64,000 bases of DNA from Candidatus Thorarchaeota archaeon (GTDB lineage: Archaea > Asgardarchaeota > Thorarchaeia > Thorarchaeales > Thorarchaeaceae): positions 64,001 through 128,000 of the forward strand of contig JAFGAR010000151.1 of assembly GCA_016933575.1 (NCBI GenBank), given 5' to 3'. Position numbers and translations under genes: made by a program. Positions 3,699 through 6,644 of the stretch are shown here, piece after piece (position 1 is the first letter of the stretch; each line of letters begins with the position of its first letter). The notes beneath the pieces were generated by a model. It had not been told where the DNA came from. It saw only the letters and a program-made list of their open reading frames with translations, and searched no databases.

Positions 3699-3752
3699 CA
3701 TGTAACAGAAAAACATATAAGTTGTAATAGTGTTACAAATTACATGCAATAC
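3699..3752 (+). promoter_or_regulatory. TATA-like box flanked by TGTAA/TTACA inverted repeats; contains a motif shared with 5903-5925
   Basis: AAAAACATATAAG at 3709-3721; TTGTAA-N5-TTACAA at 3722-3738; GTGTTACAAATTACATGCAATA from 3730. Confidence 0.5.
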
Positions 3753-3796
3753 TTACAGGTCCGGGTTGCGGGAATGTGGGTTTGCAGAGGAGAGAT

Positions 3797-4053
3797 GAGC
3801 AAGATGACTGATGATGCAAAGCATCGCAATGCCTCTAACAAAAGGGGACGAAATTCGGGACTCAAGACTCTCGAGTCCCTGTACTACGAATACACTCACA
3901 GGGGTGAGTGAAGAGGAAGAGGTGAAAGCAAATGGCACTAACAAAGAATGAACGGAAAAAGTACCGTACAAAGAAGGCTCAGTCCACTGAAGCCTTGGCG
4001 TACGCTTGGCTCTACAGAGAGTTATAGAGGCGCACCATCAGTCATCTATGCTC
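3797..4053 (+). ncRNA. Candidate ~260-nt multibranched ncRNA of unknown family
   Basis: Closing helix AGATGACTGATG(3802-3813)/CATCAGTCATCT(4036-4047) plus GAGCA/TGCTC; GCCTCTA/TAGAGGC; three internal hairpins; no credible ORF. Confidence 0.7.
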
Positions 4054-4132
4054 GAAATAGTATCTACTCCATGAATATCAGTATTTTAGTTGCTTTAATT
4101 CCAAGGTAGTTTATATCACCCGGACTATACTC

Positions 4133-4465
4133 ATGACTATGGGGGCGTTAGTTAACTCTCAGATCATGAAATATATGATCTATGATACTCGGGGTCTTGA
4201 TGAACCAGATGCTGTATACACTACTGCTGTACAGATTGCTGATGAGATTATGGAAGGCGTTGAAAGACTTCATCATTCAAGCACACTTGAAGCTGCTACT
4301 CTCTTTATCACGAATTCCGGAGCACAGTTAGTCCTATTGACCCGATCGGATGACAATGAACCTATAGATCGAATGTTTGATAGCACCCTCAAACGAGTGA
4401 CATACGAGTCTGAGAGTGGGAATCTGCACACTTACGTTATACCGATACTAGAAGCTGAAAAATAG
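4133..4465 (+). CDS. Hypothetical protein
   Basis: 110-aa ORF; TATA-like TTTATAT at about 4110. Confidence 0.6.
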   Translation: MTMGALVNSQIMKYMIYDTRGLDEPDAVYTTAVQIADEIMEGVERLHHSSTLEAATLFITNSGAQLVLLTRSDDNEPIDRMFDSTLKRVTYESESGNLHTYVIPILEAEK

Positions 4466-5865: not shown

Positions 5866-5925
5866 CAAATTTCTATTGCTTGCAAATTGTAGAAATTTGT
5901 CTGTGTTACTACATTACATGCAGTA
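5866..5925 (+). promoter_or_regulatory. 10-bp inverted repeat plus second copy of the GTGTTAC..ATTACATGCA motif
   Basis: CAAATTTCTA(5866-5875)/TAGAAATTTG(5890-5899); GTGTTACTACATTACATGCAGTA(5903-5925). Confidence 0.45.
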
Positions 5926-5930
5926 GACTC

Positions 5931-6081
5931 TGATTTGAGTAGCTGCAGGATGCAAGACGAATGAACATGAATGAAAGAGACATGAATGAAAGTTTGCCTG
6001 CTAGAATCAAACGACCACAAAACAATCCCATAGAGGTACTATCGCAGATCGAGTTTGCGCGAATATACTATGATGGTCCGT
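5931..6081 (+). ncRNA. Candidate structured leader or ncRNA with a repeated GAAUGAA loop
   Basis: Two imperfect stem-loops; 13-bp direct repeat ACATGAATGAAAG at 5965-5977 and 5980-5992. Confidence 0.4.
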
Positions 6082-6110
6082 GAAATAAGTGAAATTCGAG
6101 AGGTGATATT

Positions 6111-6644
6111 TTGACTGAGTCCTATTCAGAGGAACGAGACATACTCGGTCACTTTCATGTAATGATGCAGATGGTTTCATCAACTCTCATGAATAAAAAT
6201 GGGAACACAGTTTCTGCTACAGCAAGGGATCCAGAGTATGCCTGTCTGCGGTCAATGATGCTCGAACCACAGAATCCCACAATGTGGAATGCCCTTGCTC
6301 TGGTGTATATAATGACCAATAATTATCAAGAAGCCTCTGATGCAATTGAGAGGTCTCTTGATCTGGACACCAGTGTGGCATGGACCTGGACCATCTGGGG
6401 CGACCTACTTGGTCTTCTTGGTGAGGATATAGAATCTGAGCGTGCCTATCGCATGGCTGTGGAACTGGGGTCGAGAGAGCCGCATGTACTCAATAGACTT
6501 GCTCGATTATGCTCATCCAGGAGATGCTATTCAGAGGCACTGTCATTACTTGAGGACTTGATACCTCTCAAGCCTGAGGACCAATCCCTTTGGGACTTGT
6601 ATTCTGAATGCCTATCACACAGAACACTTCTCACTCATGATTAG
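6111..6644 (+). CDS. Tetratricopeptide repeat protein
   Basis: TPR pattern (EPQNPTMWNALA, A..AYRMAVEL, KPEDQSLW); SD GAGGTGA before TTG. Confidence 0.8.
   Translation: MTESYSEERDILGHFHVMMQMVSSTLMNKNGNTVSATARDPEYACLRSMMLEPQNPTMWNALALVYIMTNNYQEASDAIERSLDLDTSVAWTWTIWGDLLGLLGEDIESERAYRMAVELGSREPHVLNRLARLCSSRRCYSEALSLLEDLIPLKPEDQSLWDLYSECLSHRTLLTHD

Follow-up and report, generated by a model that had tools for sequence, protein, structure and literature searches.

In the window (the whole stretch of 64,000 nucleotides analysed here), the element at positions 3797-4053 likely belongs to a repressor-controlled bicistronic mRNA for two micropeptides, ORF1 and ORF2, in which a fold-back helix would gate the translation of ORF1. 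Judged from its sequence, the element is an mRNA of about 340 nt rather than a non-coding RNA. The initial annotation had described it as an independently transcribed structured RNA of an undescribed class. What stands of that description is the conserved TATA box of its own, the long closing helix and the absence of an Rfam match, while the RNA class does not stand, because the element encodes two conserved small proteins (Table 1). In this way a false "new ncRNA class" is removed and two unannotated genes take its place, and a micropeptide family is defined which is abundant (2-9 copies per genome) yet restricted to one Asgard family. To our knowledge, small proteins in this Asgard family are essentially unexplored, the defined cases of structure-based translational control in archaea are few, and neither small-protein genes nor fold-back translational control have been described in the phylum. 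The co-varying long-range helix over a start codon offers an easily mutated test case for archaeal translational control, and a candidate three-promoter regulon can be proposed for an RHH repressor.

Table 1. Features of the micropeptide operon (positions in the window) and of the RHH locus (positions in L058, which is C140:91500-96500 of the host genome G000).
Feature	Position	Strand	Description
TATA box of the small-ORF operon	3713-3721	+	ATATAA at 3715-3720
Operator-like palindrome	3723-3737		TGTAATAGTGTTACA, one mismatch from TGTAATA-N-TATTACA; between TATA box and inferred start
5' UTR hairpin	3745-3786	+	UGCAA 3745-3749 / UUGCA 3782-3786 in the host genome; ends just before the Shine-Dalgarno site
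ORF1 Shine-Dalgarno-like site	3787-3792	+	GAGGAG; spacing about 11-13 nt, unusually long
5' arm of long-range helix	3797-3813	+	covers ORF1 start codon and codons 2-4; conserved core 3804-3813
ORF1	3804-3911	+	35 aa and TGA stop; variable N-terminus; conserved C-terminal helix motif (G)L(K/R)TL(E/D)SLYY(D/E)Y
Hairpin CACUCAC/GUGAGUG	3893-3910	+	encloses ORF1 stop codon, 9 nt upstream of ORF2 Shine-Dalgarno site
ORF2 Shine-Dalgarno site	3919-3923	+	GAGGT; 8-9 nt upstream of ATG, unpaired
ORF2	3932-4027	+	31 aa and TAG stop; MAL.K...STEA.AYA.LY micropeptide family
3' arm of long-range helix	4036-4053	+	8 nt past ORF2 stop codon; conserved core 4036-4045
T-run	4084-4087	+	likely transcript end
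RHH-type gene	L058:2100-2444	+	114 aa; palindrome 70 nt upstream; RHH fold read from sequence
Divergent membrane protein gene	L058:2570-2989	-	139 aa, YNP repeats; own upstream palindrome

Two small ORFs in the intergenic gap

Besides the host genome (G000; 3.47 Mb in 215 contigs), in which the stretch 3797-4053 is single copy, the locus was recovered from 17 further members of the genus (of 27) when 60 related genomes were searched at the DNA level. The conserved blocks in this search were the promoter and 3849-4045, and the three weak matches outside the genus (E>1e-3, fragments of 25-38 nt) were excluded as the locus. The comparison set consisted of the orthologous loci of 19-20 species of the genus plus metagenome contigs, with about 70% DNA identity, and the locus turned out to be syntenic in about 20 species.

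The gap had been thought to hold no credible ORF, which is wrong, since two conserved small ORFs fill the element. The AGGA(G) columns before ORF1 are invariant in the alignment of 19 orthologs, and GAGG before ORF2 is invariant in 19 of 19. Of 16 species, 13 have an ORF1 of 35 aa, and all have an ORF2 of 30-33 aa. The pN/pS ratio is 0.34 for ORF2 and 0.62 for ORF1, the latter value meaning mild constraint only. Third codon positions are the most changeable in both frames; for ORF2, change at this position is 0.44 versus 0.21-0.23 at the other positions, and its alignment contains ten invariant columns with a mean column identity of 73%. Across species, every other frame on either strand is interrupted, and the 72-aa antisense ORF seen in the host genome is likewise not conserved. 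Generally, conservation peaks in the coding blocks and tracks amino acids rather than base pairs. The kept frames and lengths, the ribosome-binding sites and the purifying selection qualify ORF1 and ORF2 as predicted micropeptide genes.

AF2 predicts a single helix for residues 5-30 of ORF2 (pLDDT 79) and a helix over residues 23-33 of ORF1, while a complex prediction for ORF1 with ORF2 has a score of 0.02, which speaks neither way. Judged by eye, neither predicted peptide has a transmembrane stretch; both are hydrophilic and basic, the basic part being N-terminal, and a short helix rich in Tyr and Ala lies toward the C-terminus.

Several variant loci were also seen. In the G015 clade (L008 of G015, L103, L104 and L106), the ORF1 stop codon is lost, leading to a frame of 49 aa which overruns the ORF2 start. 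One genome has a second copy of the locus (L027; G013:C4:88066-91095), which retains the promoter, the operator and ORF2 along with most of the 3' arm, but has an ORF1 of only 7 aa. L043 (G027:C7) and L113 (a metagenome contig) have one more cistron, of 31 aa (MARAENQKLKEE...), located between ORF1 and the homolog of ORF2, and this variant locus has two 3'-arm-like boxes, CATCAGTCAT and CATTTGCCAT.

To return to the RNA itself, the 257-nt stretch 3797-4053 folds at -91.9 kcal/mol versus -61.8 +/- 4.7 in dinucleotide shuffles (z -6.4), and 0 of 200 shuffles match it, so it passes the comparison with shuffled sequence that had been proposed for it. The minus strand of the same stretch folds equally well (z -7.6, on par with the plus strand), because inverted repeats are present. 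Rfam covariance models, including those of RNase P, SRP and C/D-box sRNA, gave no match at gathering score over the whole window, as the initial annotation had supposed for this element. The sub-threshold matches at E<=10 are chance-level C/D-box models only (E 3-6), with best scores of 15.6 bits for SNORD109A against a gathering score of 35 and 13.6 bits for sR60 against 50. With such chance-level scores, the idea that the UGAUGA/CUGA strings of the 5' arm are C/D boxes was discarded.

All helices that had been listed for the element are present in the host sequence, namely GAGCA/TGCTC, the 12-bp arms, GCCTCTA/TAGAGGC and three hairpins. As a conserved multibranched fold, the proposal survives in the core of the closing helix and more weakly in the hairpin 3893-3910, but the inner helices are no better than shuffled or slid controls. 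These inner helices are 54-82% paired over 19 orthologs, with 21 of 500 and 27 of 500 shuffles as good, and they are mostly features of the host's coding sequence, not a conserved fold. Among relatives, the core of the closing helix has four compensatory pairs. The hairpin 3893-3910 is 84.5% paired and has changes on both sides in three of seven pairs, which is weaker support than that of the long-range helix.

A non-coding multibranched RNA of a new class, with the ORFs incidental, would account for the strong folding z-score, the lack of an Rfam match, the promoter and the co-varying closing helix. It would not account for two frames which are preceded by Shine-Dalgarno sites, keep their lengths in most species and are under purifying selection, nor for the protein-level paralogs of ORF2 which occur with different DNA across 15 of 17 genera (see below). 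Its inner helices are unconserved, and conservation follows amino acids, not pairs. We find this explanation scarcely credible, and the bicistronic mRNA is preferred.

A fold-back helix over the ORF1 start codon

In the host genome, GAGCA (3797-3801) pairs with TGCTC (4049-4053) and AGATGACTGATG (3802-3813) pairs with CATCAGTCATCT (4036-4047), making a full helix of 17 bp with one bulged A at 4048, whose arms are 222 bp apart. The conserved core is a 10-bp helix of AUG(A/G)CUGAUG with CAUCAG(U/C)CAU, in which 96.8% of cells are paired over 19 orthologs and both partners have changed in four pairs; none of 500 shuffles is as well paired or co-varies as much, and slid controls are 18-38% paired. 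RNAalifold recovers the core as the sole predicted helix linking the 5' end to the 3' UTR. The 3' arm, located 8-17 nt after the ORF2 stop codon, is the sole conserved block in an otherwise variable 3' UTR, and when 26-nt segments are compared as partners of the 3' UTR, the best one contains the ORF1 AUG in 12 of 20 species. The helix masks this AUG and leaves the Shine-Dalgarno site uncovered.

The compensatory events number about 4-5, come from related genomes and fall in a helix whose 5' arm is also under coding constraint. For example, G:C is replaced by A:U in the clade of G000, G006 and G017 and also in G015, while C:G is replaced by U:A in G011. Metagenome variants similar to G015 have, at the same position, either a G-U pair (5' G, 3' U, with a mismatch alongside) or a full A:U pair (5' A, 3' U). 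In the clade of G013 and G003 the register is shifted to ACACAAUGGCUG/CAGCCAUUGUGU with the AUG still covered, and the extension of the helix in the G000 clade co-varies as well (GAGCA/UGCUC versus GACCA/UGGUC). In one G015-like lineage the helix is weakened, with one mismatch and three G-U wobbles. A further long-range pairing, of CTACGAC in ORF1 to GTCGTAG in the 3' UTR, was rejected; it is limited to a subclade, has no compensatory change and is absent in the host genome.

Seven cells of the core are G-U on the plus strand and would be A-C on the minus strand, so they fit the plus strand only and it is the plus-strand RNA that folds. The same G-U-compatible changes bear on a DNA-level explanation, in which a 17-bp inverted repeat with a spacing of 222 bp would mark the ends of a small mobile element or a pair of protein-binding sites. 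Such changes fit plus-strand RNA only, the arm overlaps the start codon in every species, and a MITE would hardly be single copy in the host genome and syntenic in about 20 species. We give this explanation almost no credence compared with a helix in the mRNA.

Besides the long-range helix, the untranslated regions contain other structures. The 5' UTR hairpin (CAACYGU/ACRGUUG in relatives) has 78.5% of cells paired by hand count over 19 orthologs, a C:G to U:A change in seven sequences, and 1 of 500 shuffles as good, support which is moderate because the alignment is poor for a few rows. Run on the 5' UTR by itself, RNAalifold called no hairpin, owing to the variable loops. Downstream of the 3' arm, in 3' UTR folds of 20 orthologs, the relatives have a strong GC-rich hairpin followed by a T-run, and the host genome has the T-run without a strong hairpin. 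A separate transcription unit appears to be supported by the conserved TATA box and by the hairpin and T-run terminator which follow the locus in relatives. Contigs of two metatranscriptome runs from the same study gave no match to the stretch, and neither did the probable source DNA run, so these runs speak neither for nor against a transcript.

These structures lend some weight to the main rival of the preferred reading, in which the mRNA is the same and the helix serves RNA stability or processing, whether by making a compact fold that resists nucleases or by offering a cleavage site. Such a role would fit with the hairpin close to the inferred 5' end and with the strong terminator hairpin in relatives, and the host genome lacks the terminator hairpin while its long helix is extended to 17 bp. 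However, the helix always includes the AUG, even when its register is shifted, and stability would not require the AUG; the very ends of the transcript are uninvolved, and the sequence shows neither a bulge-helix-bulge nor a K-turn geometry. Since the helix tracks the AUG through the register shift, translational control is favored over stability or processing, which we consider unlikely.

The mechanism that we propose is as follows. An RHH-type repressor would act on the operator palindrome of a promoter that drives two cistrons, ORF1 and ORF2. Once the full transcript folds, the ORF1 AUG would be occluded by a helix of 10-17 bp over the AUG and the next 7-9 nt. ORF1 would then be translated chiefly from nascent RNA, or once the helix is opened, because its AUG is occluded and its Shine-Dalgarno site poorly spaced. 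ORF2, with a free and well-spaced Shine-Dalgarno site, would be translated freely, and the outcome would be a low ratio of ORF1 to ORF2. A ribosome terminating at ORF2 would reach only the edge of the 3' arm, so coupling between the two cistrons is possible and not indicated.

A bolder version, which we put forward tentatively and think more likely to be wrong than right, is that this locus is the first archaeal fold-back lock of the hok type. The 5'-3' helix would put the ORF2 stop codon beside the masked ORF1 start codon, making a closed-loop bicistronic mRNA in which ORF1 would be translated from nascent RNA only or reopened by ribosomes terminating at ORF2, and it would set the ratio of two family members under the RHH repressor.

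Translation which is possible only before a distant complement is made has a precedent in the RNA phage MS2, in which the start of the maturation (A-protein) gene is occluded by long-range pairing and is translated only from nascent RNA. The initiation site proposed here would likewise be open only until the distant complement is synthesized, while MS2 differs in being a phage genome, with a single gene concerned and a bacterial setting. In haloarchaea, the 5' and 3' UTRs are both needed for translational regulation and must interact (PMC2636863). That case, from a different phylum, has functional evidence without a defined conserved helix; here a defined co-varying helix is known from sequence alone.

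Type I toxin mRNAs, such as hok of hok/Sok and aapA of the Helicobacter aapA/IsoA system, are inhibited by a fold-back long-distance interaction of their 5' and 3' parts (PMC6733600, PMC9841398). The resemblance includes a small-peptide mRNA, a distant 3' segment which pairs with the initiation region, and a structure conserved across loci; the full-length hok and aapA mRNAs are poorly translatable, and the same is proposed for ORF1. The differences are that the start codon is masked here rather than the Shine-Dalgarno site, that the host is an archaeon and the mRNA bicistronic, and that the peptides are hydrophilic rather than membrane toxins. The 5'-3' interaction of type I toxin mRNAs (PMC6733600) thus seems to be the closest described mechanism, by analogy, while membership of the class fails on peptide chemistry.

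Accordingly, a type I toxin-antitoxin-like system, with ORF1 or ORF2 toxic and the mRNA kept inert by fold-back pairing as in hok/aapA until its 3' end is trimmed, is very unlikely. A 5'-3' long-distance interaction that blocks initiation is a hallmark of hok/aapA mRNAs (PMC6733600) and the family is multi-copy, but the peptides are hydrophilic, basic and without a transmembrane segment (by eye), the paralog pairs have no helix, an unsystematic look showed no antisense promoter, and PADLOC gave no matches.

A multi-copy micropeptide family in one Asgard family

The DNA search reaches the genus only, and the ORF2-type paralogs were found by a protein profile. Within the order, 68 of 87 genomes, from 15 of 17 genera, have matches to this profile, at 2-9 small ORFs each. 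When the phylum was sampled evenly, at E<=1e-3, the profile matched 55 of 76 genomes of the host family and none of 225 genomes of 29 other families, and so the matches are not noise. The members have MAL.K, a basic stretch and [ST]-[ED]-A-[LIV]-x-Y-A-Y-x-Y-R-R in common, and their DNA is unrelated. They are typically arranged as tandem pairs, in which the ...YRR codons of the first cistron contain the GGAGG that serves the second. A profile of ORF1 had no further match elsewhere in the host genome. By eye, the C-terminus of ORF1 shares the motif [ST]x[ED][AS][LIV]xYxY with the ORF2-type peptides, and because this conserved C-terminus fits the family motif, ORF1 is probably a diverged paralog of them.

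Small proteins of under 50 aa have been found in Haloferax and Methanosarcina by ribosome profiling or peptidomics; like the present family, they come from unannotated micro-ORFs, Shine-Dalgarno-led or leaderless, and are often lineage-specific. The Thorarchaeota family has no sequence relation to the small proteins of Haloferax and Methanosarcina, and it differs from them in being multi-copy, in its tandem pairs and in its limitation to one Asgard family. A literature search on Thorarchaeota small proteins turned up nothing relevant.

In a search of 1.84 billion representative proteins, 10 matches were obtained at E<=1e-3, with lengths of 29-48 aa, all labeled "hypothetical protein" or unnamed, and the window's own two peptides are absent from a collection of 15 billion proteins. 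Neither peptide has a relative in Pfam, NCBIfam, PHROGs, PADLOC, PDB sequences or an ESM Atlas feature search, where the only matches are at chance level (YqzE, E 0.025; ZNF29, E 0.08). RiPP precursors, including a PqqA-like E...Y arrangement, were considered and rejected: Pfam and NCBIfam gave no match at E<=10 except the chance one to YqzE, and there are no RiPP enzymes among the recurrent neighbors scanned at about 20 paralog loci.

Each paralog pair stands alone, having a promoter and a terminator of its own, and the neighborhoods vary. At about 20 paralog loci the neighbors include, for instance, a GNAT protein with a transketolase, two MFS transporters, an OPT transporter and others, which form several syntenic groups with no common functional partner; no RiPP, toxin or attenuator context was found at these loci.

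This bears on a further explanation, in which the ORFs would encode leader peptides, rich in Tyr, for attenuation of transcription into the downstream 110-aa ORF and an aminotransferase gene. The Y.Y.Y motifs, the terminator after the ORFs in relatives and the position of some paralog pairs upstream of transketolase, transporter or aminotransferase genes would be expected of it. But the most conserved residues are other than Tyr (MAL.K, STEA), a conserved TATA box and a leaderless-type start belong to the downstream gene itself, the paralog pairs stand alone with their own terminators in unrelated contexts, and no alternative antiterminator pairing was found. Attenuation is therefore highly improbable, even more so than a toxin.

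Further copies in the host genome are located on contigs C21, C153, C139, C49 and C67 and at the start of C138, several of them at contig ends. Near-identical paralog pairs lie at contig ends on C21 (end), C139 (end), C138 (bases 1-100), C49 and C67, and the end of C139 and the start of C138 are identical over about 85 nt. The repeated family probably breaks the assembly of this genome. On C49 and C67, clusters of the words GTGACC/GGTCAC (TGTGACC...TGTGACCCC; GTGGTCACACCGGTGGTCAC) flank the micropeptide units, and these may be putative sites of another regulator.

Promoter, predicted operator and neighboring genes

The TATA-like box at 3713-3721 and that of the next gene at about 4110-4116, both noted in the initial annotation, are present. 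A block AATACTTATAT that matches the TATA region is conserved in all orthologous loci, and by the usual archaeal spacing transcription would start near 3742-3747.

Archaeal repressors classically bind between the TATA box and the start of transcription, and the operator-like palindrome sits at this position. The host genome has only three sites with <=1 mismatch to the palindrome; besides the one at the small-ORF locus, these are two on contig C140, on either side of an RHH gene. Genomes of the genus have 1-3 exact copies of the palindrome each, versus about 0 for a reversed control. In seven genomes including the host, the palindromes away from the small-ORF locus are in promoters of the RHH ortholog or of its neighbor gene. 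On C140 the two sites (2030-2044 and 3069-3083 of L058) are exact and each adjoins a TATA box, and the arrangement of palindromes around the RHH and membrane protein genes is kept in six other genomes of the genus. Because the palindrome has the classic repressor position, we infer that the RHH protein is the repressor, which probably binds the predicted operator at 3723-3737. An operator shared by the regulator's own promoter and the target promoter is what would mark a regulon of an RHH (CopG/Arc-type) protein, and it is found here as a predicted site. In three species (L002, L003 and L046), a direct repeat GTAATAC-GTAATAC replaces the palindrome in the promoter, which is odd for a symmetric RHH site.

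Elsewhere in the window, at 5903-6083, a motif GTGTTAC...ATTACATGCA, similar to 3730-3751, lies upstream of a 40-aa ORF (5961-6083) that ends in ...ARIYYDGP and is itself located immediately upstream of a Shine-Dalgarno-led 177-aa ORF (6111-6644). This 40-aa ORF is absent among the ORF1-profile matches at E<=10; it may encode a further micropeptide that is regulated in the same way.

Directly downstream of the micropeptide operon, in the window as in most aligned relatives, there is a 110-aa ORF (4133-4465, plus strand) with its TATA box at 4110-4116. It belongs to no Pfam, NCBIfam, PHROGs or PADLOC family. Its conserved ATGGGGGC start, at 4139, suggests a leaderless mRNA.
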